The translations under genes were made by a program, and so were the position numbers. Under the pieces are notes generated by a model that saw only the letters and a list, made by a program, of their open reading frames with translations, was not told where the DNA came from and searched no databases. A stretch of 64,000 nt of DNA from an uncultured Acidobacteriota bacterium (lineage in GTDB: Bacteria > Acidobacteriota > Thermoanaerobaculia > Gp7-AA8), in NCBI GenBank assembly GCA_963793695.1, contig CAWCBB010000009.1, positions 35,463 through 99,462 on the forward strand, read 5' to 3'. Below are positions 36,374-55,553 of the stretch, in pieces (within the stretch, counting starts at the first letter, position 1; the number at the start of each line of letters is the position of its first letter).

Positions 36374-37075
36374 TCAATGTTCTTCGGCGGTCACAGCGCC
36401 GCCGATGTAGACCATCGTCAGCATGATGAAGACGAACGTCTGCAGGACGGCGCCGAAGATGCCGAGCCCATCATCGGCCACGGAAGGACCAGCGGGAACA
36501 GCCCCATGAAGATCCCGGTCGCGGTGTGCTCGCCGAAGATGTTGCCGAACAGACGCATGCCGAGCGAAAGGATGCGCGCGAAGTGGCCGATCAGCTCGAT
36601 CGGAAACATCAGCGGCGCGAGCCACCAGACGCGGCCCCATGAAGTGCAGCGAGGTAGTGCCCGAGCCCCTGCGCCCGGATCCCCTGCCAGTTGTAGTAGA
36701 GGAACGCGGTGATCGACAGCGCGAACGTCGTGTTGACGTTCGCGGTCGGCGGCTGCAGGAAGAAGAACAGGCCGAAGATGTTCGAGACGAAGATGAAGAC
36801 CGTGAAGCCGCCGATGACGTAGAGGAACTTGTTCGCGGCGCCGTGGCCGACGATGTCCTCGAGCAGCCCTTCAGCCCGCCGACGAGCAGCTCGAGCAACT
36901 GCTGGAGCGGCCCGGGATCGTCCTTGCTGAGGTTCCGCGCGATCGAGCGGAAAGAGGATCAGGCTGATGAGCAGAACCAGCAGAGCCATGATGACGTGAT
37001 CGGGGAGGTGAAATGCCCAGCGATGCCGAGCAAGCGCGTTGACCGGACCGTAAAGGATCGAGTTTCGTGATCCAT
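36374..37075 (-). CDS. atpB: ATP synthase F0 subunit a (frameshifted)
   Basis: PPTANVN, PIELIGHFARILSLGMRLFGN, LQTFVF. Confidence 0.93.
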
Positions 37076-37102: not shown

Positions 37103-37550
37103 TCACGAGCTTTCCCCGGAGGCCCTGTACACCGCGTACAGGACCTCACACCCGATCCCGATCACGAGGACCGAGAATCCCGAACAGCACACTGAGCGCG
37201 TTGAAACGAGCTACGAAGATTGAGACCGCGAGCGCTACCCCGAAGAGAGCCATGCGCGCCAGCGCGCGCACTCCCAACCGCCATGCCTGGACTCGGGGTG
37301 CCGGCTGAAGGACGTGAACCACGATGCCCTCCAGCCAAAGGAAGTTGATGATAACGACGCCCCCGCTGCAAGTCAATCCGAGCAGACCCCACCATTTCCC
37401 CTGCGCCGCATAAGCCGCCGCGAGCAGGATCCACGCCCCGATCGCGAAGCGGACGATCCGGGCGACCATGGCCCGTTCCTCGCGGAAATCGGGTTCATCC
37501 GGTGCCGGATCCTCCCGCCGGGGGCTCGTTTCGGTCGTTGCGTGCTCCAA
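37103..37550 (-). CDS. atpI: ATP synthase protein I-like membrane protein
   Basis: Multi-TM protein with NF motif, directly upstream of atpB. Confidence 0.7.
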
Positions 37551-37753
37551 GGCGAAATAGCTGAACGAAGGCCCCGATGACGCCGAGGCCCGTGAGAACG
37601 ATGGTCAGCCACGGGCCCGTCCCGAGCTTCCGATCGAGCCACCACCCCAGACCATACCCGACGGCGATCGCGATGCGGAAACAGTCAATCCGAGCGACGG
37701 ATGATTTCGGCGAAGGCTCTGCCACCAGCTCGCGGTCGCTTCGTTTCGTCCAT
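37495..37753 (-). CDS. atpZ: AtpZ/AtpI family protein (frameshifted)
   Basis: GYGLGWWLDRKLGTGPW motif. Confidence 0.8.
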
Positions 37754-37769
37754 TCGGCTCGAGCGCAGT

Positions 37770-39233
37770 CTACCTCATCGCGACCGTGACGGCCCCGCGC
37801 AGGGATCGTCCCACCTGCGCGAGCAGCGGCTGCGGGGCCACGCCGAGCGCGAGCGTGATCACCAGGCAGACCGCCGCCACGAACTTCAGCGACCCTGCCC
37901 CCTGCGAGCTCCGCGCCCGCGTCGTCCCGCAGATACATCGCCACGACCAGCCGGAAGTAATAGAACATCGACACGGCCGACATGAGCACGGCGATGATCG
38001 CCAGCCAGCCCCACCCCGAGCCGATCGCGGCGAGAAAGAGATAGTACTTCCCGATGAATCCCGCGGTCGGCGGGATCCCTCCGAGCGAGAGCAGGAAGAT
38101 GACCATCGCGAACGCCCAGAACGGCGCGCGGCTGTGCAGCCCGGCGAAATCGTAGATCGCTCTCGCCCGCGTACTCGCGCTTCGCGAAGCATCAGAACGA
38201 GCGCCCAGATCCCGAGCGTGGCGAACGATGTAGACGAGCATGTAGACGAGCACGGACGTGAGGCCGAGCTCGCTCATCGCGAGGATGCCGAGGAGCGCGT
38301 ACCCCGCGTGGCCGATCGAGGAGTAGGCGAGCATCCGCTTGACGTTGTCCTGCGTGACGGCGGCGAGGTTCCCGACGATCATCGAGAGCGCCGCGACCGT
38401 GGCGAGCACGGCTCCCCAGTCCAGCCGGAAGTCGGCGAGCGCCATGTAGAAGATGCGCGCGAAGATCGCGAACGCGGCGCCCTTCGAGGCGGTCGAGAGG
38501 AACGCGGTGATCGGCGTCGGCGCGCCGACGTAGACGTCGGGGGTCCAGACGTGGAACGGCACGGCCGCGACCTTGAAGCAGAGCCCCGCGGCGAGGAGGA
38601 TGATCCCGAGGAGGAGCGCCTCGTTCCCGGCGATCCCCCGGATGCTCGTGGCGATCGCCTCGAGCCCGAGCGAGCCCGTGACGCCGAAGATCAGCGAGAT
38701 GCCGTACAGGAGGATCGCGGAGCTGACCGAGCCGAGGATGAAGTACTTCATCGCGGCTTCGGTCGACGCGTTCTCGTTCCTTGTAGTAGCCGGCGAGGAT
38801 GTAGCTCGAGAGCGAGAGGAGCTCGAGGCCGATCCAGATCGAGATCAGGTGAACGCCCGAGACCATGAACATGGTCCCGCACAGGGCGAACGCGAGCAGC
38901 GAGAAGTACTCCCAGGCGGAGTAGCCCCCCTCGCGGAGAAAGTCCTCCGAGAGGAGCGCGACGAGCGCCATCGCGGAGATGAGGAGCAGCTTGAAGAAGG
39001 TCGCGAACCCGTCGAGTGACGAACATCGCGGCGAGCATCGCGGTCGCGGGCTGGCGCTGCGCCCCCGCGGCCCAGAAGACCGTCGCGGCGGTCGCCGCGA
39101 GGACGAGGAGCATCTGCCACTTCGCCGCGGCCACGTTCGAGCGGCGGAAGATGAACGGCGCCACGAGAAGCCAGCTCGCGCCGAGCGCGATGACGATCTC
39201 CGGAGCCAGGAAGACGACGTCGCTCCACTTCAT
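37770..39233 (-). CDS. nuoN: NADH-quinone oxidoreductase subunit N (frameshifted)
   Basis: GLELLSLSSY, KYFILG, FKVAAVPFHVWTPDVY, KRMLAYSSIGH. Confidence 0.94.
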
Positions 39234-40875
39234 CGGGCGGCCCCATGCGCCGGCTCGGAGTCCGACCCCTCTTCCATGAGCGCCGGCATCGCCGGGGCCT
39301 CGGGATAGACGAGCTTCCTAGCCGTGAAATAGTTCGGATCGACCTTCTGAACGAGGTAGTTGACCGGCTTTTCGAGAACGTCGAACATCGGCTTCGGATA
39401 GACGCCGATCCAGACCATGAGGGCCACGAGCGGGATCAGCGTCCACGCCTCGCGCCCGCCGAGGGTGATGTCCTTGAGGTTCTGGTTCTTCGGGTTGTCG
39501 AGCGGCCCCCAGAAAACGCGCTGGTAGAGCCAGAGCAGATACGCGGCGCCCAGGATGATGCCGATCGCCGCGGCGGCGCCCCACCAGATGTTCCGGTTCG
39601 CGGCGCCGAGAAGAATCGTGAACTCGCCGACGAACCCGTTGAGCGCCGGCAGCCCCAATCGACGAGAGCGCGGTGATCAGGAAGAACGTCGCATACACCG
39701 GCATCTGCTTCGCCAGCCCGCCGTACTCCGAGATCAGCCTCGTGTGGCGCCGCTCGTAGATGATGCCGACGAGAAGGAAGAGCGCGCCCGTCGAGATGCC
39801 GTGGTTGATCATCTGGAGGATCGAGCCGCTCAGCCCCATCGGGTTGAGAGCGAACATCCCGAGCATCACGAACCCGAGGTGCGAGACCGACGAGTAGGCG
39901 ACGAGCTTCTTCATGTCCTTCTGCACGAGCGAGACGAGCGCGCCGTAGATGATGCCGATGATCGCCAGAATCACGATCGGGATCGTCAGGTTGACCGTCG
40001 CCTCGGGGAGGATCGGAAGCGAGAATCGGACGAAGCCGTAGGTGCCCATCTTCAGGAGGACGGCGGCCAGGATGACCGAGCCGGCGGTCGGAGCCTCGAC
40101 GTGCGCGTCGGGCAGCCACGTGTGGAACGGGAACATCGGGACCTTGATCGCGAACGCCGAAGAAGAACCCGAGGAAGAGCCAGAACTGGAGCGTCGCCGG
40201 GAATGAGGTGCCCGATCTCGTGGTACTGCAGCACTTCGAAGGTCGGCGCGTTGCCGAGGCCTTTGATATTGAGCAGCGGGATGCCGCCGCTGTTGAAGAA
40301 GTAGAGACCGAGGATCGAGAGCAGCATCAGGACCGACCCGGCGAGCGTGTAGAGGAAGAACTTGATCGACGCGTAGAGCTGCCGCGGGCCGCCCCAGACC
40401 CCGATCAGGAAGTACATCGGCACGAGCATGACTTCCCAGAAGACGTAGAAGAGGAAGAAGTCGAGCGCGCAGAAGACGCCGATCATGCCCGTCTGGAGGA
40501 GGAGCAGGAGGACGTAGTACTCCTTCTCCCGGGTCGTGATCGCGGTAAAGGACGAGTAGACGGCGATGAAGCCGATCAGCGTCGTCAGAAGGACCAGCAC
40601 CAGCGCGATCCCGTCGATCGCGAACAGATACTGGACGCCGAGGGATCGATCCAGGGTGCGCGCTCCGAGAACTGGAACAGCGGCGCCTCCGCCGCCCGAT
40701 CGAAATGCCACCAGAGCGGGAGACTGACGAGAAAATCGAGACCGACCACCAGCGTGGCCCACGAACGGATCGCCCGGACGCTGCCCTTCGGAAGGAAGAG
40801 CAGCACCAGCGCTCCCGCGAGCGGGATATAGGTGATCAGCGAGAGGATCGGAAAACCACCGCTGTACAGACCCAT
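39230..40875 (-). CDS. nuoM: NADH-quinone oxidoreductase subunit M (frameshifted)
   Basis: [32 protein letters not shown]. Confidence 0.94.
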
Positions 40876-40944
40876 GGAACCTGTTTCTCCTCTATCGCGG
40901 ACCGGCGCGCTCCGGCCGCCGCGATCTCAGCTGCCTCGGATGAA

Positions 40945-43133
<2,189 letters not shown>

Positions 43134-43245
43134 TTCGATCCCCGGGCGCGGCAGGGCGCCCCGTTCATTCCTTCGAATCGCGCCGGACCGACCTCGGCAC
43201 GCGGCAACCGCCGCCGGGGCGGCGGCTCCCGCGTGGCGACGGCGC

Positions 43246-43548
43246 TCAGCCGTTGAGCTGCCGCGCCTCGTCCACGTTCACGCTGTTCTTGAGCCGGTAG
43301 AGCTGGATGGCGATCGCGAGTCCGACCGCCGCCTCCCCCGCCGCCACCGCGATCGTGAAGATCGCGAAGATCTGCCCTTCGATCGACCCGAGCCGGTTGG
43401 CGAAGGCGATGAAGTTGATATTGACCGCGTTGAGCATCAGCTCGACGCACATGAGGATCACGATGATGTTGCGGCGGAGGACGACTCCGACGAGGCCGAT
43501 CGAGAACATCGTGGCCGACAGGAGCAGGTATGCGGTGGTGCTAGGCAC
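43246..43548 (-). CDS. nuoK: NADH-quinone oxidoreductase subunit K
   Basis: [23 protein letters not shown]. Confidence 0.96.
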
Positions 43549-44210
43549 GGAGGGCCTCCTTTTCCCGCTTCTCTTCCGCCACGCGGTCGGCGATGAACTG
43601 CGGGACGGCTTCCTCCTCCTCGGCGGCGAGGCGGCGCTTGCCGATGACGATCGCGCCGATCATCGCGACCAGGAGGAAGAGGGAGACGACCTCGAAGGGA
43701 ATGAGGTAGTCCTGATAGAGCGCCATGCCGATCGCCTCGGAATTGCCGACGATCGTGCCCGCGGCGCGCGGCGGGCGACCCGTCGGCCGCGACGAGCGGC
43801 GCGGTCGCGGGCACGGAGCGGAGCGCGTCGGTCGAGAGGGCGGGCGCGCCGAACTCTCCGGCGCGGAACATCGAGAGGAACAGGACGAAGAGGGCGATTC
43901 CGACTCCGATGCCCGCTTTCCAGAAGGGGGAGAGCATCGGCTCGTTCGGGAGCTCGCGGACGTTCGTGAGCATGACGACGAAGAGGAAGAGGACCATGAT
44001 GCCGCCCGCGTAGACGAGCAGCTGCACCGCGCCGACGAACTCGGCGTGCGCGAGGATGAAGAGCATCGCGACGCAGAGGAACGTGAGGAGCAGGAAGAGC
44101 GCCGAGTGAACCGGGTTGCGCATCGCGACGACGAGGATCGAGCTCGCGACGGCGATCCCGCCGAGCACCAGAAAGAGGATCATCGGGAAGGAGCTCGTCA
44201 GCCAGTCCAT
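43541..44210 (-). CDS. nuoJ: NADH-quinone oxidoreductase subunit J (frameshifted)
   Basis: [36 protein letters not shown]. Confidence 0.94.
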
Positions 44211-44785
44211 CAGCGCGTCTCCCCGGTGAGAAGCTTCGGCGCTCCGAGCGCCGGCTCGTCCTCGCCATCGTCCACGGTCAGGCCCGCGTTCCGGGCCGTC
44301 TCTTCGAGCGACGGGTACTGGGGCCGCTGGTCCCAGTACTCGAGCTCCTGCATGTTGAAGTAGAGATCGCTGCGGTCGTAGGCGGTCAGCTCGTACGTCT
44401 TCGACGTGAGCCAGATCGACTTCGGCGTCGTCGGGCAGGCCTCTTCGCAGAGCGCGCAGAACATGCAGCGCTTCACGTCGATGTCGTAGCGGTCGAGGAC
44501 CTTGACCTTCTTCTTCTTGCCGTCGACCTCCTGCGTCTCGTCGTGCACGTCGATGTAGATGATGTCGATCGGGCACGCCATCGCGCAGAGCTTGCACGCG
44601 ATGCATCGCTCGAAGGAGAAGCGGAACATCCCGCGGAAGCGATCGGACGGCTCCATCCGCTGTTCCGGGTATTCGACCGTCACCTTCTTCTTCCAGAGCT
44701 CGCGCCAGGTGGTCCGCAGCCCCTCGATCAGATCGAGGAGGAGGAACTTCTCGCTCCACTTCGTTTTCGGACGTTCGACGAACAT
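44210..44785 (-). CDS. nuoI: NADH-quinone oxidoreductase subunit I
   Basis: CIACKLCAMACP and CMFCALCEEACP. Confidence 0.95.
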   Translation of the reverse strand: MFVERPKTKWSEKFLLLDLIEGLRTTWRELWKKKVTVEYPEQRMEPSDRFRGMFRFSFERCIACKLCAMACPIDIIYIDVHDETQEVDGKKKKVKVLDRYDIDVKRCMFCALCEEACPTTPKSIWLTSKTYELTAYDRSDLYFNMQELEYWDQRPQYPSLEETARNAGLTVDDGEDEPALGAPKLLTGETR

Positions 44786-45862
44786 CAGATGCCTTTCGAG
44801 TTGACCAGCAGGACCACGATGCCGGTGACGGCGATGTTGACCAGCGCCAGGGGGATCATCCACTTCCAGCCGAGACTCATCAGCTGGTCGAAGCGGTAGC
44901 GCGGGAAGGTCCCGCGAAGCCAGACGTAGACGAGCATGAAGAACATGACCTTCGTGAAGAAGATCAGCCCTCCGAGGATGGCTCCGAGCGCGCCCCAGCC
45001 GACCAGAACTTCGGTCGTGAGGCCCCACCCGCCCATCGCGAGCGTCCACCCTCCGAAGAAGAGGACGACGACGAGCGCCGAGTTCACGAGCATCGCCGCG
45101 TACTCCGCCAGGAAGAAGAAGGCGAATTTCATCCCGGAGTACTCGGTGTGGAATCCGGCGACCAGCTCCGACTCCGCTTCGGGGAGATCGAAGGGCGCGC
45201 GGTTGTTCTCCGCGATCATCGCAACGAGGAAGATGAAGAACGCGACGATCTGCGGGATCACGAACCAGAGGTGCTGCTCCTGGTAGCGGACGATCTCGCC
45301 GAGGTTGAGCGTCCCGGCGATCATCAGGACGCCGATGATCGAGAGGCCGAACGGGACCTCGTACGAGACCATCTGCGCGGCCGAGCGGAGCCCGCCCATC
45401 AGCGAGTACTTATTGTTGGAAGCCCAGCCGCCGAGGATCATGCCGTACACGCCGGTGGAGGTCAGCGCGAGAACGAGGAGGATCCCGATGTTGACGGAGC
45501 TGATCTCGAACGCCGGTGGCGGTCCGACCGGAATGATCGCGAAGACCGTCATCGCCGGGATCAGAGGGAGCCATGGCGCGATGAAGTAGGGGACCTTCTG
45601 CGCGCCCGAGGGGACGATGTCCTCTTTCAGGAGGAGCTTGATCGGGTCGGCGACGAACTGCAGCAGCCCGTAGGGGCCGACGCGGTTCGGACCGAGCCGC
45701 GCCTGGAGAAAGGCGAGGAACGCGCCGCTCGACGAGCGTCATCGCCGCCACGACCGTGATGACGATCGCGAAGGCGACGACGAACTTGATCGCCGGCCAG
45801 AGGACCCACTTCATCAGCGGGCTCGTCGCGGCGACGGCGGCCAGGGAGAGAGAAGCGTTCAT
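44785..45862 (-). CDS. nuoH: NADH-quinone oxidoreductase subunit H (frameshifted)
   Basis: GPNRVG, KYSLMGGLR, ENNRAPFDLPEAESELVAG. Confidence 0.95.
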
Positions 45863-45876
45863 CACGGGGCCTCCGT

Positions 45877-45974
45877 GGCGAATGGCGAATGTTGAATGTT
45901 GAATGTTGAATGGAAGACCGACCCCGCCCGAGGGAGGGGGCATTCAACAGTCAACATTCTCCATGCAACATTCT
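45877..45974. repeat. Heptamer tandem repeats (GTTGAAT) with inverted counterpart between nuoD and nuoH
   Basis: ggcgaat x2, gttgaat x3, then cattcaa/caacatt arm. Confidence 0.8.
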
Positions 45975-45986
45975 GCTTTGAGCGGC

Positions 45987-47126
45987 TCATCGGTCCACCT
46001 CGCCCAGCACGATGTCGATGGTCCCGATGAGCGCGACCAGGTCCGAGACCAGGTGACCCTTCGCCATCGCCGGGAGCGCCTGCAGGTTGATGAACGAGGG
46101 CGGCCGGACGTGGATGCGATACGCGTTCTGGCTCTTGCCGTCGGAGACGATGTAGTAGCCGAGCTCCCCTTTGGGCGCCTCCACCGAGTGGTAGATCTCT
46201 CCCTCGGGCGGGCGGATCACGCGGGAGATCTTCGCCTTCAGGTCGCCCTCCGGCGTGTCGGCGATCTTGACGATGCACTGCTCGCAGGATCCGGTTCGAC
46301 TGCCGCATCTCCTCCATCCGGATGAGGTAGCGGTCGTAGGTGTCTCCCTTGCTGCCGAGCGGGATCTCGAAATCGAGCTCCGAGTAGATCTCGTAGGGAT
46401 GCGCCTTCCGGATGTCCCAGTCGACGCCCGAGCCGCGCAGCGGCGGGCCGGTCAGGCCCCACTCGATCGCCTCTTCGGGAGAGATCACGCCGATGCCGAC
46501 CGTGCGGCGCTTCCAGATGCGGTTGTTCGTGAGCAGCGCGGCGTACTCGTCGATGCACGGCTCGAACTTGTCGACGAACGCGGCGAGCTTCCCGAGCCAC
46601 TGCGGCGTGACGTCGTACGGCTGCCCGCCGATCTTCATGCAGTTGAGCGTGAGGCGCGCCCCGCAGTAGTCCTCGAAGAGGTCGAGGATGTCTCTCTCTC
46701 GCGGAACGTGTAGAAGAACGGCGTCATCGCGCCCAGGTCGATCGCGTGCGTGGCGAGCCAGAGAAGGTGGGAGCTGATCCGCTGGAGCTCGGCGAGCATC
46801 ACGCGGATGATCTGCGCGCGGCGCGGGATCTGATCCGCCACCCCCATGAGCTTCTCGACGGCTTCCACGAAACCCATGTTGTTCGTCGCGGAGGCGACGT
46901 AGTCCATCCGGTCCGTGTGCGGCACGCACTGCGGGAAGTTCATGTTCTCGAACAGCTTCTCGGTGCCGCGATGGAGATAGCCGATCACCGGCTTCGCGTC
47001 GATGATCCGCTCGCCGTCGACCTTGAGGATCACGCGCAGAACGCCGTGCGTGGAGGGATGCTGAGGCCCGAAGTTGACCTCCATCTCCCGGATATTGAGC
47101 ATCGTGCTCGATTCCACGGTCGTCAT
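45987..47126 (-). CDS. nuoD: NADH-quinone oxidoreductase subunit D (frameshifted)
   Basis: [37 protein letters not shown]; no NiFe CxxC. Confidence 0.95.
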
Positions 47127-47133
47127 CGCGTCC

Positions 47134-48411
47134 TCAGGGCTTCCCTGCCGCGGTCATCAGCTTGCGGAGCGAGTCCGCCGTCTCGGGATCGCCCGGGACG
47201 CAGAGCTCCACGTCGTTCGTCTCGCCGCTCACCAGGGCTTCCGCGTATCCCTCGCAATCCCACCCGCAGGCGCCGCAGTCGGTCTGCGCCATCGAGGCGA
47301 AGAGCTCGGCCCGGAATCCCTTGCCCTGCGCCATCGCGAGCCGCTCCTCGAGCGTGAGCCCGTCGTCGTGCCACGGGCAGGGCTCGGAGGCGCCGGTGAC
47401 CGGGGCCGCGGCGGCGGGGGCGGGAGTGGGGGCGGGAGTCGCGACGGGCTCGGCCTTCGGCGCCGCCGGAGCGGGCACGGGTTTCGCCGCCGCCGGAGCG
47501 GCGGCGGCAGGCGCGGCGCCGCCCGCCGTGGCTGCAACGAGCTTCTCGATCGTCGCGGTCAGCTGGCGGAGCTGCGCTTCGATCTGGTCCATCCGCTTTT
47601 CGAGGGATTCCATCTGCACCTTCTTCTTCTGCGCGTCCGCGTCGGTTGCCGGCGCCGCGGAGGGTGGAGTCTGCGGCTTCGGAGCGGCGGGCGCGGGAGC
47701 CGCGGCCTTCGGCGGCGCGATCGCCTTTTTCACGGGAGGGGGCGGGCCGGCCGGAGGCGAAACGCCGTACGCTTTCCACTCTCCCCGATAGATGTTGACG
47801 TCGTCCTGGTTCTTGCCGGTCGATCCTTCCTTCGGGCCTCCCCCCTCGGGGAAGACCTCCGGGTAGATCCTCGCTCCGGTGTCGATTCCGCGGATCGGGA
47901 AGTCCTTCCGCAGCGGGTGGCCGTTGAAGCCGTCCCACGTGAGGATTCGCTCGAGGTTCGGATGCCCCTCGAACTCGATTCCGAACATGTCGAACGTCTC
48001 TCTCTCGGGCCAGTTCGCCGTTTTCCAGACCGAGGAGACCGACGGGACCTTCACGCCGTCCGCGACGCGAAGCTTGAGGCGGACGCGGAACTTCCGATCG
48101 AACGAGTAGAGGTGGTAGACCACGCCGAACCGGAGATCGCCGGGTGGTGTGGGGTACGTCGAGTAATCGACGCCCGTGAGATCGACGAGGTAGGAGAAGC
48201 CGTCGCGCTTGAAGCTCTCGCAGACCTCGCGGATTCGGCGGCGCTCGACCAGGAGAGTGATCTCTCCGGCGAACTCGCGGGCTTCGAGGATGGCCGCGCG
48301 GACGGGAGCCACGGCCGCGGCGATTCGCGGATCGGCCGCGATCTCGTCGAGACCGCGCGCCGCCGGGACGCTCGTTTCCCCACTCTTCTGGACTTCCGAC
48401 TGTTCGCTCAT
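47134..48411 (-). CDS. nuoC: NuoC fused to linker, coiled coil and C-terminal four-Cys Fe-S domain
   Basis: [21 protein letters not shown]; tail [17 protein letters not shown]...LCVPG in one uninterrupted ORF. Confidence 0.93.
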
Positions 48412-48478
48412 GGACGATCCGGACCGCGGCGCGAGCTTCGTTGAACTCGAGCCTTCTGGTGCCGCCGGGACGAGGAGG

Positions 48479-49514
48479 CTAGATGCCTTCGATCTCCCGG
48501 CCGGCTTGCTTCATCAGCCTGGCCAGCGCGTCGAGTGTCTCCGACTCGCCAGGCACGCAGAGCGAGACGTCTTTCGTCTCGCCCGTGAAAAGAGCATTCC
48601 CATATCCCTGACAATCCCACCCGCAGGCGCCGCAATCGGTCTGCGCCATCGCTGCGAACAGGCTCGCCTCGAGACCTCCGCCGGAGGCGGCGGCCATCTT
48701 CAACCGCTCTTCGAGCGAGAGGGACTCGTTGTGAAAGTCGAGATTTTCAGAGGCGCCCGTGATTGCGGGAGTGGCCTCGGCGACCGTGGCCGCCGAGGGC
48801 TCGAGAAACCCGGGCACGGGCGCGGGCTCGGGCGCGGGCTCGGGCTCGGCGTCGGTCTGAAGTCTGAGGTCCGCAGGTCTGAAGCCTGAGGTCCGCGGTC
48901 TGAGGTCCAGGCTCGGGAGTCGGCAGCACCAGGGCTGCGGCCTGTTCCGCGCGGAGCGCCGGACCTTCGTGCCCGGGACGGCCGCTGCCGTTGCCGTCGC
49001 GCACCGCCTGGCGCGCGAAGTCGTACGCCTCTCCCCCTTTGCGGAGGACGTGCATCTTGTCGATCTTCTTCTGGAGCTCCATGAGCCCCCAGAGCAGCGC
49101 CTCGGGGCGCGGCGGGCAGCCGGGAACGTAGACGTCGACCGGGATGAGCCGGTCGACCCCCTGGGTCACCGCGTACGTGTCGTACGGCCCTCCGCAGGTC
49201 GCGCAGGAGCCCATCGCGATGACCCACTTGGGCTCCGGCATCTGCTCGTAGAGGCGCTTGATGACCGGCGCCATCTTCTCGGTCACCGTGCCGGCGACGA
49301 TCATCAGATCCGCCTGGCGCGGGGTCGAGCGGAACACCTCGGCGCCGAAGCGCGACATGTCGTGCCGCGGGTCGAGCACGGCCATCATCTCGATGGCGCA
49401 GCAGGCGAGCCCGAACTGCATCGGCCAGAGCGACGACTTGCGCGCCCAGTTGAAAATCCTGTCGACCGATGTCGTGAGAATGTTCGGGTCGAACCGGTTT
49501 TCGATCAGACCCAT
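48479..49514 (-). CDS. nuoB: NuoB, very likely fused to a C-terminal four-Cys Fe-S domain (1-bp insertion at 48875)
   Basis: [22 protein letters not shown]; removing base 48875 joins it to ORF 48479-48817 ([12 protein letters not shown]...LCVPG). Confidence 0.88.
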
Positions 49515-49865
49515 GTGAGAACGTCCCTCTTCCAGGCGTAAAAATAGCCGACCAGCAGAATGCCGATGAAGATCGCCATCTCGATCGCACCGAACCAGCC
49601 GAGCTGCTTGAATCGGATCGCCCACGGAAAAAGGAAGATCGTCTCCACGTCGAAGATGATGAACAGCACAGCGATCAGAAAATAGCGGACCGAGAAGCGC
49701 GTCGACGAAGGCATCCGAGGTGGCCTCGATGCCGCACTCGTACGCCTCGAGCTTGACCTTCGAGGCCCGCGAAGCGCGGATCAGGGGGGTGATGACGAAG
49801 ACCGTGAGGACCGGAAAAGAAAGGACGATCAGCGCGGCAATCAGGATGCTCAGGTAGTTGGCCAT
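49505..49865 (-). CDS. nuoA: NADH-quinone oxidoreductase subunit A (frameshift near 49705)
   Basis: [27 protein letters not shown]. Confidence 0.94.
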
Positions 49866-49889
49866 TCGGTGCCCTCTCGGGCCAGCGCT

Positions 49890-49917
49890 ATTGTAGGGGG
49901 GGACCCACCTTCGTCAA
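49890..49917 (-). promoter_or_regulatory. Sigma-70 promoter of nuo operon
   Basis: TTGACG-16 bp (contains a homopolymer run)-TACAAT, about 25 bp upstream of nuoA. Confidence 0.65.
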
Positions 49918-49919
49918 GG

Positions 49920-51050
49920 TTACTCCATCACGTTCGCAAAGAGACTGCGATCACTTTCGAACGTCCATTCGTCGTGCGAGGCCCCCCTCGCCTGGACCAG
50001 GACGCGCATCTCTTCGCCGATCCCGTCGGGGAGCACCAGCCGGCGCGCCGCCTCCCGCATCGTCGCCAGCTCGACCGCGTCCCGGGCGTCCCCGGCGACC
50101 TCTTCGAGCGGCGCCAGCAGAGGATGGCGGGTGATCCCGATTCTCAGGAGAAACCGCGCCTGACGCTCCAGGAGCAGGGTGCGCCATCCTCTGGCCTCCC
50201 CGGCCGCCTGAAGATCCGTGAAGTTGATGTGGGCCGTCAGATCCTGAGCCCCGGCGTCCGCCAACAGGTCCCGCGTCAGCCGGTGGCGCCGGAAGGCGAC
50301 GGCAGTCCCGTACCGCCGGATCCTCACGTCGAAGAGCTTCTCCTGAGGAAACCCGTAGTCGATCGTCACGATCAGACCGCGGTCGACCCTCGAGGCGAGA
50401 TCGCCGTAGACCCTCCCCCATTCGGGCGTGATGTCGGCGAACTGCCCGGGCTCGAGCGCGAGGCCCCGCTCCGAAAAATAGTCCGCGAGCTCACGGTCAG
50501 CTTCGCGCTCCTCCCACTCGAGGGAGCCACCCTCGCCGGCGCGCACCCAGAGCTCGGAGAGGCCTCCCTCGCGCCGGACGACGCGCGCCACGGGGAACGC
50601 GTCGAAAAGCTCATTGCTGAGCGCAAGGACCGTCCCCGCGAGATCGACCTCGTCGAGAGAACCGACGAAACGAAGCTCCGGATCCGTCGCCAACTCGGGC
50701 CGGAGGCGTCCGAGGCTCCGGTCGACGCCGAAGAAACGGGCGCGGTTCCGGGCCGCTTCCGGCATGTGGTCCCGGATGCCGGCGAGGAGAGTTCCATCGC
50801 CGCATCCAATGTCCACTATCGGGCACAGAGCGTCGCCGGAGCGGTCCAGGAACTCGGTGGCGAGTCGCGAGAGCGCGAACGCGAATGAGGGTGAAAGATC
50901 GACCGAAGTCGCGTAGTCGAGCCCGCTCTTAGGTTGGGCGTAATAGCCGAATTCAGGGTCGTAAAGCGCCAGCTCCATGAATTCGCGAAACGGTATGCTT
51001 CGGCTGCTCAAGCGCTTAGCTACCCATCCCTCGTCGCTACCTGAAGACAT
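49920..51050 (-). CDS. MidA/NDUFAF7-family SAM-dependent methyltransferase
   Basis: FREFMELALYDPEFGYY, DIGCGDG, SNELFDAFP, IDYG, QDLTAHINF. Confidence 0.88.
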   Translation of the reverse strand: MSSGSDEGWVAKRLSSRSIPFREFMELALYDPEFGYYAQPKSGLDYATSVDLSPSFAFALSRLATEFLDRSGDALCPIVDIGCGDGTLLAGIRDHMPEAARNRARFFGVDRSLGRLRPELATDPELRFVGSLDEVDLAGTVLALSNELFDAFPVARVVRREGGLSELWVRAGEGGSLEWEEREADRELADYFSERGLALEPGQFADITPEWGRVYGDLASRVDRGLIVTIDYGFPQEKLFDVRIRRYGTAVAFRRHRLTRDLLADAGAQDLTAHINFTDLQAAGEARGWRTLLLERQARFLLRIGITRHPLLAPLEEVAGDARDAVELATMREAARRLVLPDGIGEEMRVLVQARGASHDEWTFESDRSLFANVME

Positions 51051-51126
51051 GGACGATCTCCCCCAAGCGGGCCGAGCAAAGCCCCGGCCGCGGCGTTTCC
51101 GCCCCTGCCATTGTACCGAATAAGAA

Positions 51127-51142
51127 TGGCACTCCGCGTGCG
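51127..51142 (+). promoter_or_regulatory. Putative sigma-54 promoter
   Basis: TGGCACTCCGCGTGCG. Confidence 0.6.
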
Positions 51143-51233
51143 ATCCGGGAGGGCACGGTCCGACGAAAAAAGCGGATCGGAACCTTGGCCGGGACATCCG
51201 GCTCGGCGGGCCCGAGGGGCCCGGGAGGACGAG

Positions 51234-51887
51234 ATGAAAAAGTATGTCGCAACATTCATGATCGCTGCGATGTCGCTCTTCTCGGCCGCGACGTATGCGG
51301 GCGATCCGGCGACGCGCGATCAGACGCGCAAGGGCGCGGTCATCGGAGCGGTCGCCGGCGGCGTCCTCGGCGCGGTGGTCGGGAACAACCGAGGAAGCGG
51401 CAACGCGAAGAAAGGCGCCCTCATCGGCGCCGTCGCGGGAACGGCCATTGGGGCCGGGATCGGGGCCTACATGGACAAGCAGGAGCGCGAGCTCCGGCAG
51501 ATCGAGGGCGTCGACGTTTACCGCACCGCCGAGGACGAGCTGAACGTGGTCGTCCGCAACGAGGTCCTCTTCGACTTCAACTCCGCGGCGCTCCGCTCGG
51601 CATCGAAGAGCTCCCTGCGGGAGATGGGGGACGTCTTCGAGCGCTACGGCGACACCACGATCGCGGTCGAGGGACACACGGACTCGGTCGGCTCGGACGC
51701 GTACAACCGGCGGCTCTCCCAGAGGCGGGCGAGCTCGGTCGCGAGCTACCTCGAGCAGCTCGGAGTGAGCGGCGGCCGGCTCGACACGATTGCTTATGGC
51801 GAATCGCAGCCGCGCGCCAGCAACTCCTCCTCGAGCGGCCGGCAGCAGAACCGCCGCGTCGAGCTCAAGATCCGCGCGAACGGCTGA
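51234..51887 (+). CDS. OmpA family protein (glycine zipper + OmpA C-terminal domain, YiaD-like)
   Basis: GAVIGAVAGG, YMDKQ, GHTDSVG, LSQRRA, NRRVE. Confidence 0.93.
   Translation: MKKYVATFMIAAMSLFSAATYAGDPATRDQTRKGAVIGAVAGGVLGAVVGNNRGSGNAKKGALIGAVAGTAIGAGIGAYMDKQERELRQIEGVDVYRTAEDELNVVVRNEVLFDFNSAALRSASKSSLREMGDVFERYGDTTIAVEGHTDSVGSDAYNRRLSQRRASSVASYLEQLGVSGGRLDTIAYGESQPRASNSSSSGRQQNRRVELKIRANG

Positions 51888-53028: not shown

Positions 53029-55553
<2,525 letters not shown>

Follow-up and report, generated by a model that had tools for sequence, protein, structure and literature searches.

How do electrons enter a complex I-like enzyme that lacks the subunits NuoE, NuoF and NuoG? The donor of such widespread eleven-subunit enzymes is an open question, and according to the available text of a study of the Desulfitobacterium hafniense enzyme a common donor protein had been sought earlier without success (PMC11238625). 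The question is raised again by an operon in the genome of an uncultured Acidobacteriota bacterium (Thermoanaerobaculia, Gp7-AA8; assembly GCA_963793695.1, 4.46 Mb in 30 contigs, completeness score 68%). The stretch analyzed here, referred to as the window, has a length of 64,000 nucleotides (nt) and comprises positions 35463-99462 of contig CAWCBB010000009.1 (C9). When the intact proteins encoded by the relative G002 were mapped to the window by tblastn, nuoA-B-C-D-H-I-J-K-L-M-N fell contiguously on the minus strand, between 49865 and about 37770, with no nuoE, nuoF or nuoG. The clean operons of the relatives G002, G016, G006 and G092 have the identical A-B-C-D-H... order. In the window both NuoB and NuoC end in a small four-cysteine domain of ~85 residues, which we refer to as the tail. 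We consider it fairly likely, from the sequence features described below, that these tails are tethered ferredoxin-like carriers that would pass low-potential electrons to NuoI.

NuoC is encoded by an intact open reading frame (ORF) in which PF00329 matches residues 54-175 and PF04060, a putative iron-sulfur (Fe-S) family, matches residues 376-406 with a score of 29.4 bits (33.7 bits in a whole-genome search), above the Pfam gathering cut-off of 23 bits. The tail of NuoB is 62-63% identical to that of NuoC. The closest intact relative of the window NuoB, P0044 (336 residues), runs without a break from NuoB through the linker to the tail, and the window matches it in two frames; P0044 and a relative of NuoC, P0002, are encoded on one public contig, and most of the orthologous NuoB fusions listed carry a precomputed PF04060 label. 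An earlier reading of this stretch (the original prediction) had NuoC and a reconstructed NuoB ending in paralogous domains on long Pro/Ala linkers, and the Pfam matches, the identity between the tails and the continuity of P0044 bear this out. The whole 4.46-Mb genome holds only two PF04060 matches, the NuoB and the NuoC tail; as both lie in this operon, their co-occurrence is not due to chance.

We aligned 30 tails from 18 sources. The cysteines C45, C48, C52 and C70 (CxxCx3C...C) are invariant in all 30 sequences, as are Q42, D44, G49, D51, Y55, A58, G62, L69, G73, E76 and T77. When modelled alone, the tail forms a compact helical domain (for the model confidence see Table 1). The linkers that join the tails to the core proteins have a median length of 85 residues (57-108) and a Pro+Ala content of 45% in 109 NuoB fusions; in 13 NuoC fusions the corresponding values are 99 residues (43-160) and 55%. 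An AlphaFold2 model of full-length NuoC shows the core, one helix and the tail as folded parts, and the Pro/Ala stretches have a predicted local distance difference test (pLDDT) score below 50; the Pro/Ala-rich linker is thus probably disordered, as judged from this model. The helix within the linker spans 41 residues and is a local feature, being found in P0002 and absent from P0008 and other NuoC fusions. It could possibly act as a coiled-coil or docking element.

The tails are restricted to the operon that lacks nuoEFG. A second nuo set lies in three places in the same genome: nuoB-C-D on contig C10, nuoA and nuoF on one strand of contig C16, and nuoG-H-J-K-L-M-N on the other strand of C16. 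We could not identify nuoE in this set; the ORF between nuoA and nuoF has no Pfam match. A profile search of the genome found no tail on the NuoC of C10, and the canonical NuoB is likewise tail-less. The description of the enzyme as being without NuoEFG therefore holds for the operon and fails for the genome, where NuoF, NuoG and a second nuo set are found elsewhere. The same is seen among the relatives, a set of 40 genomes of which 24 belong to the same family (f1) as the window genome: of 41 genomes searched, 40 have NuoF-type genes, and within f1 these are present in 23 of the 24 other members. The co-occurrence of tails with a loss of nuoEFG from the genome, which the original prediction had proposed as a check, is therefore not seen; since NuoF-type genes are near-universal, the tails mark the EFG-less enzyme and not genomes without an NADH module. 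As possible sources of low-potential electrons, the genome encodes four loci with a 2-oxoacid:ferredoxin oxidoreductase N-domain and one NiFe hydrogenase large subunit. None of the 25 f1 genomes yielded a full-length RnfD/NqrB, and 12 of them give only partial weak matches; the full-length protein is present in G027, G031, G033 and G035, from other families of the class, and none of these has a Nuo tail.

Searches for relatives of the tail led to flavoproteins. The best NCBIfam match is to the N-terminal part (positions ~42-145 of 539) of NF004859, 'sulfite reductase subunit alpha', with E values of 4.6e-23 for the NuoB relative and 2.3e-26 for the NuoC relative; as full-length members of this family the tails fall short, at 81.7 and 92.5 bits where the cut-off is set at 432. 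A tail-only query run exhaustively against 1.84 billion representatives returned 440 proteins at E≤0.001, and a protein-database search gave 530 matches at E≤0.001. We sorted the 269 proteins retrieved from two protein-database searches into 110 NuoB fusions, 13 NuoC fusions, 51 CysJ-like proteins and 95 other proteins or fragments. In the 51 CysJ-like proteins the domain precedes an FAD/NAD(P)H module of the CysJ type; the long proteins that we sampled carry the Pfam domains FAD_binding_1 and NAD_binding_1, and in one of them an NIR_SIR hemoprotein is also fused. In CysJ itself the slot N-terminal to the FAD/NAD(P)H module is occupied by a mobile FMN domain. The PRK06214/NF004859 flavoproteins are the closest sequence relatives of the tail, with which they have the PWHD...AMAQTDC signature in common; in those proteins the fusion partner of the domain is an NAD(P)H/FAD reductase, in some cases together with a siroheme hemoprotein, whereas the window tails are carried on NuoB and NuoC. 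The link to sulfite-reductase flavoproteins, which the original prediction made, is supported by both the NF004859 match and these 51 fusions. We found no biochemical study of the PRK06214/NF004859 family, and the available text of PMC4724949 is silent on such a domain.

A profile built from the 30 tails also matches RnfB in two Rnf complexes of known structure, in 8AHX_B at an E value of 0.003 and in 7ZC6_B at 0.0054 (over residues 40-89), and the four cysteines align. Against the RnfB family TIGR01944 the tails score 31.9 and 37.1 bits, below the cut-off of 68.7 bits, and the FdI-like part alone matches. In the available text of PMC9588780, the paper on 7ZC6, 'FdI' denotes residues 40-90 of RnfB, which are highly mobile between two flexible solvent-exposed linkers and are proposed to swing by ~65 degrees, shuttling electrons as a [4Fe-4S] carrier; the fold is compared with that of the [4Fe-4S] domain in the corrinoid iron-sulfur protein. 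In the portions of that cryo-EM study available to us the FdI cluster was inferred and not resolved, so that the RnfB precedent is itself partly inferential (PMC9588780). Like the tails, FdI is a small helical four-cysteine domain with the same order of cysteines (PF04060; 7ZC6 chain B, 8AHX chain B). Unlike the tails, RnfB has an N-terminal transmembrane helix as an anchor, is continued by polyferredoxin domains and forms part of Rnf, and its cysteine spacing is CxxCx4C as compared with CxxCx3C in the window tails. The swinging arm of the original prediction thus has a precedent in a homologous domain, as described in the available text of PMC9588780.

The fusions are conserved among relatives of the window genome, and their absence there, which would have spoken against the original prediction, is not observed. 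Within f1, the tail is present in 21 of the 24 other genomes; it occurs twice in 15 of them, at a distance of 1.0-1.3 kb, and once in six, and all of these matches lie in stop-free open frames of 320-490 residues. Overall the tails are conserved across at least 15 genera. In a sample of 300 other Acidobacteriota genomes, drawn evenly from the phylum, strong matches (E <1e-20) are confined to f1 (6 of 6), f6 (2 of 2) and f10 (3 of 3), all from one class. A further 25 weak matches outside these three families (E 1e-4 to 1e-6) cover the motif region only and are assumed to be RnfB-like. A scan of species-representative genomes gave 287 stretches, of which the best 80 yielded 78 named loci; all of these come from metagenome-assembled genomes (MAGs), none from a cultured strain, and the labels are Thermoanaerobaculia or Acidobacteria/Acidobacteriota. 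Tails on both NuoB and NuoC are found at 34 of these loci and a NuoB tail only at another 34; the others have a NuoC tail with an unclassified tail ORF (4), a NuoC tail only (2), an unclassified tail ORF only (2), an array of four with a NuoC tail (1), or two domains on NuoB with a NuoC tail (1). As a separate observation, in f6 and f10 the tail domain ends a non-Nuo protein of 222-224 residues whose N-terminal part has no Pfam match (L023 7944-8612, plus strand; L024 9641-10315, minus strand), and the L023 copy adjoins a gene of the metallo-beta-lactamase fold.

The number of tails and the subunit that carries them differ between lineages. G002 and G016 have twin tails, and G006 has a tail on NuoB only, with a NuoC of 252 residues. 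In G092, a genome scored as 100% complete, NuoB carries at least five tandem domains of a CxxCx4C subtype (L026 1-997, minus strand; L025 1-1059, plus strand): one contig ends after the first NuoB domain, and a second contig opens with four more, followed by a tailed nuoC. G025 has four tandem domains in one open frame of 445 residues, which extends up to the start of nuoD (L022 8743-10073). P0145, named NuoI at its source, consists of a NuoI-type protein with a Pro/Ala linker and a tail, and P0140 is a NuoC of 278 residues with a tail of another subtype. Fusions and tandem arrays have arisen repeatedly and independently. A tree of 88 tails, built on 89 columns, places NuoC tails of the window type together with those of NuoB (support 97/71), and a second type of NuoC tail ('TEEAPWH...CTAC') stands apart from the window type, unresolved at the base of the tree. 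The topology hints at either two origins or gene conversion of the NuoC tail, with support values that are not robust.

In the window, nuoC, nuoI and nuoK are intact, and frame breaks divide each of nuoA, B, D, H, J, L, M and N into segments that lie in two to four frames. We compared the window with independent contigs of ~98-99% identity, from four runs and four studies, which differ from it by 1-nt insertions or deletions (indels) at 38775, 39015, 39660, 40157, 40195, 40644 and 46691. These seven sites coincide with frame breaks in nuoN, nuoM and nuoD; the breaks are therefore single-base assembly errors, and a reading of the operon as a pseudogene is ruled out by the positions of these indels. 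The comparison with independent near-identical contigs, over 37400-49900 of the window and genome-wide, gave 12 single-base indels and 38 more, and most of the long genes are split by them. The low completeness score of the genome is probably also due to assembly indels. The core and the tail of NuoB stand in different frames, and here the break falls on a 22-nt direct repeat (48854-48874 and 48876-48896). One contig, from run X6, spans 48819-49250 with 22 fewer letters than the window; since 22 is 21 plus 1, deletion of 22 nt restores one NuoB frame.

The core subunits have the features of an ordinary quinone reductase and proton pump. HPSTHG and DRMDY, which we take to be the quinone-site motifs, can be read in the NuoD translation, and a hydrogenase-type CxxC is absent at that N-terminal position; NuoD scores 194 bits against PF00346 vs 15.6 bits against PF00374, in agreement with the earlier statement that it keeps these motifs and lacks the NiFe cysteines. 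The mapping likewise agrees with the eleven-gene order given earlier and with the gap of ~125 nt between nuoD and nuoH, a length that holds if nuoH starts at 45862; no gene lies in between. NuoB has the N2 cysteine motifs, including GCPP. NuoI contains two 4Fe-4S motifs, CIACKLCAMACP and CMFCALCEEACP, whose cysteines are invariant or nearly so in 32 NuoI sequences. The three antiporter-like subunits, encoded by nuoL, nuoM and nuoN, are present in the operon.

We propose that the operon would encode a second complex I-like enzyme, which lacks NuoEFG, reduces quinone and pumps protons, and in which the tails would stand in for the docked NADH module. Each tail would bind a single [4Fe-4S] cluster at the end of a linker of 45-160 residues and would be reduced by low-potential oxidoreductases of the cytoplasm. 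The reduced tails could then swing back to the exposed top of the peripheral arm and deliver one electron at a time to the clusters of NuoI, from which electrons would pass to the N2 cluster of NuoB and on to quinone. At this length the linkers would let a tail reach every part of the arm. We prefer this reading because the tails are the sole redox-type addition, are specific to the operon and conserved, have long linkers and belong to a carrier-type family; the tandem arrays point to mobile carriers rather than to a single docked cluster. We infer that the tails bind a cluster and move, where on NuoI they dock, which donors reduce them and in which direction electrons flow. A prediction of the complex of NuoI (32-row alignment) with the tail (30-row alignment), run without controls, gave scores of 0.01 and 0.02 vs a mark of 0.32 and counts neither for nor against docking. 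A bolder extension is possible, though on balance we doubt it: the tails, which in some genera form arrays with at least five domains on NuoB and one on NuoC, might be iron-sulfur swinging arms, the electron counterpart of lipoyl arrays, through which the pump would collect directly from several cytoplasmic oxidoreductases without a soluble ferredoxin, and such arms might mark the site of electron entry in EFG-less complex I generally.

A number of observations weigh against the tethered-carrier proposal. A Pfam search with both tails placed that of NuoC above the PF04060 cut-off, as described above, and that of NuoB (48479-48817) just under it, at 20.6 and 22.2 bits. The similarity to RnfB is weak, with E values of 0.003-0.005 by profile and 0.63 by single sequence. 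A Foldseek search of the PDB with the tail model gave 11 matches at E≤10, none at E≤0.001 and none to an Fe-S protein; this speaks neither for nor against the link to RnfB, which rests on the sequence profile. In G007 (97% complete), an orthologous methyltransferase-nuoA-B-C-D locus encodes NuoB and NuoC proteins that end soon after their cores, and six of the 24 f1 genomes are in a one-tail-only state; the tails are thus not indispensable. The f1 tally counts the unpublished genome G023 as having no match, and one of the two f6 matches is from another unpublished genome, G030; G023 also enters the NuoF tallies and the weak PF03116 matches. The 22-nt duplication may be real in the window strain, with the NuoB tail out of frame with its core, and if so this strain has an uncoupled NuoB tail. 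No conserved redox partner gene was found beside the operon, where the neighbors are methyltransferase, OmpA-like, H+-pyrophosphatase (H+-PPase) and ATP synthase F0 genes, and a CysJ-like FAD module (PF00667) was not found in the 68%-complete genome. The distribution of Rnf and tails hints at complementarity between the two, in genomes that are related and not independent. As a side observation, G007, where both tails are absent, has three NuoF-type matches as compared with one in most of the family, a single case that may be coincidence.

If the tails were docked permanently on NuoI or NuoD, they would form a fixed extension of the electron wire, with an extra cluster in the place of the NuoG clusters and a static landing site for ferredoxin, and the linkers would only be spacers from the C-termini to the docking site. 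An extra surface cluster would be useful to an enzyme without NuoG, the tail is a compact folded domain, and NuoB, NuoC and NuoI are all subunits of the peripheral arm. We nevertheless regard a fixed extension as unlikely: arrays of four to at least five domains cannot share one site, the length of the linker varies from 43 to 160 residues, G007 has no tails, and the homologous domain of RnfB is mobile (PMC9588780, available text). Electrons might instead leave the enzyme by the tails, with the proton-motive force driving a reverse run from quinol to the tethered low-potential clusters, which would then serve as a built-in ferredoxin for reductive enzymes. Complex I is reversible, the domain is placed to feed a reductase in the CysJ-like relatives, and a canonical NADH-oxidizing complex I is already encoded in the genome; in addition, the available text of PMC9588780 describes Rnf as reversible. 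A sulfite/nitrite reductase hemoprotein (PF01077) was not found in the 68%-complete genome, however, and the presence of several ferredoxin-reducing 2-oxoacid oxidoreductases with no Rnf found speaks for a need to oxidize low-potential carriers rather than to make them; an output function is, in our judgment, decidedly unlikely.

The dispensability of the tails in G007, the single tails of six of the 24 relatives and the coexistence of two versions of complex I, between which regulation is plausible, would also fit a role outside electron transfer, in which the domain is a redox or oxygen sensor or an assembly aid that switches the EFG-less enzyme on or off. Every characterized context of the domain met here (RnfB FdI, CysJ-like reductases) is one of electron transfer, however; five-fold arrays of sensors have no obvious use, and the enzyme would be left with no visible electron entry module without its tails, which makes this role highly improbable. 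That the fusions are an artefact of frameshifted assembly or gene calling might be suspected from the many 1-nt indels in the window assembly and from the split NuoB; this is refuted by the intact NuoC of the window and by hundreds of independent assemblies with continuous NuoB-tail and NuoC-tail proteins, and its probability is negligible.

Both the eleven-subunit enzyme and the PF04060 domain are already known, and databases label proteins as NuoB or NuoC with both Pfam domains. Other EFG-less enzymes, such as cyanobacterial and chloroplast NDH-1, Campylobacter Nuo and archaeal Fpo, use ferredoxin, flavodoxin or F420H2 as donors by means of lineage-specific adaptors, and their carriers are soluble proteins or separate subunits, for example NdhS and FpoF. 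We know of no carrier domain covalently tethered to NuoB or NuoC in NDH-1, Campylobacter Nuo or Fpo. The lipoyl domains of 2-oxoacid dehydrogenase E2 are carriers on Pro/Ala-rich linkers in one to several tandem copies; lipoyl arms carry acyl groups, whereas the tails would carry electrons by an iron-sulfur cluster, and there is no sequence relationship between the two. The D. hafniense enzyme has the nuoABCDHIJKLMN order without nuoEFG, like that of the window, and the available text of the study contains no mention of fused carrier domains (PMC11238625). The same is true of the available text of a Nuo survey preprint (10.1101/2025.03.13.643058) and of Acidobacteriota MAG papers (10.1101/197269, 10.1101/2020.10.01.322446). 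Our literature search, which drew on the available parts of its sources and did not cover subscription journals or the supplementary tables of MAG papers, found no published description of Fe-S tails on NuoB, NuoC or NuoI, and the original prediction, which did not recognize the architecture as described, stands in this respect. Nor did this search bring up a paper in which the fusion is noticed or interpreted.

These observations suggest that the immediate donor of the eleven-subunit enzyme is likely to be built into the polypeptide, as a single-cluster ferredoxin-like domain on the peripheral arm, and that independent lineages have attached this domain to NuoB, to NuoC and to NuoI. They make the donor question of the eleven-subunit enzymes experimentally testable; the organisms themselves are uncultured. 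If the proposal is true, the tails would be a new class of swinging-arm carrier, and they suggest how abundant uncultured soil Acidobacteriota, where no Rnf complex was found, may couple ferredoxin-level electrons to the quinone pool. The coordinates of the operon and its parts are given in Table 1.

Table 1. Positions in the window of the nuo genes, the parts of NuoB and NuoC, and the adjoining methyltransferase gene.
Feature	Position	Strand	Basis and remarks
nuoA	49508..49865	-	one frame break near 49700; tblastn with G002 NuoA, two frames
nuoB, whole	48482..49514	-	mapping of G002 proteins
nuoB core	48906..49514	-	PF01058 102 bits; N2-cluster cysteine motifs; 95.6% identity to P0044 residues 1-202
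NuoB linker, 22-nt tandem direct repeat	48854..48896	.	at frame break between core and tail; spacing 22, 95% identity
NuoB C-terminal four-cysteine putative Fe-S tail (PF04060-type)	48482..48766	-	81% identity to P0044 residues 215-336; four invariant Cys
nuoC, intact ORF of 425 residues	47134..48411	-	core, Pro/Ala linker and putative Fe-S tail; PF00329 146.5 bits; 81% identity to P0002
NuoC linker helix, 41 residues (256-296)	47524..47646	-	AlphaFold2 block with pLDDT 89-95, flanks <50
NuoC C-terminal putative Fe-S tail, residues 335-425	47137..47409	-	PF04060 at residues 376-406; tail modelled alone, mean pLDDT 87.1; RnfB profile matches
nuoD	45990..47126	-	three frames; HPSTHG and DRMDY; indel at 46691 in independent contigs
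nuoH	44785..45862	-	two frames
nuoI	44210..44785	-	intact; two CxxCxxCxxxCP motifs
nuoJ	43544..44210	-	two frames
nuoK	43246..43548	-	intact
nuoL	40945..43133	-	three frames
nuoM	39239..40875	-	at least four frame segments; indels at 39660, 40157, 40195 and 40644 in independent contigs
nuoN	~37770..39233	-	four frame segments; 3' end approximate; indels at 38775 and 39015
PF02636 S-adenosylmethionine-dependent methyltransferase	49920..51100 (start approximate)	-	directly upstream of nuoA; 111.5 bits

The PF02636 gene directly upstream of nuoA is on the same strand as the operon, and in G006 a Pfam-confirmed PF02636 gene has the same place (L021 3786-4958). By reading only, a gene of this type also lies upstream of nuoA in G025 (L022 5388-6566) and G007 (L106). 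NDUFAF7/MidA, an assembly factor of mitochondrial complex I, is a member of the PF02636 family, and by analogy the neighbor would suggest an arginine methylation of bacterial NuoD. The operon lies within a cluster of energy-conversion genes: genes for an H+-PPase (54123-55553, plus strand) and an OmpA-like lipoprotein (51111-51887, plus strand) are found upstream, and a gene for subunit a of ATP synthase F0 (36377-37064, minus strand) lies downstream. The H+-PPase gene is upstream in G006 too, and the subunit a gene is downstream in G002 and G092. At the left edge of the window there is a gene with an electron-transfer flavoprotein domain (PF01012; 194-820, minus strand).

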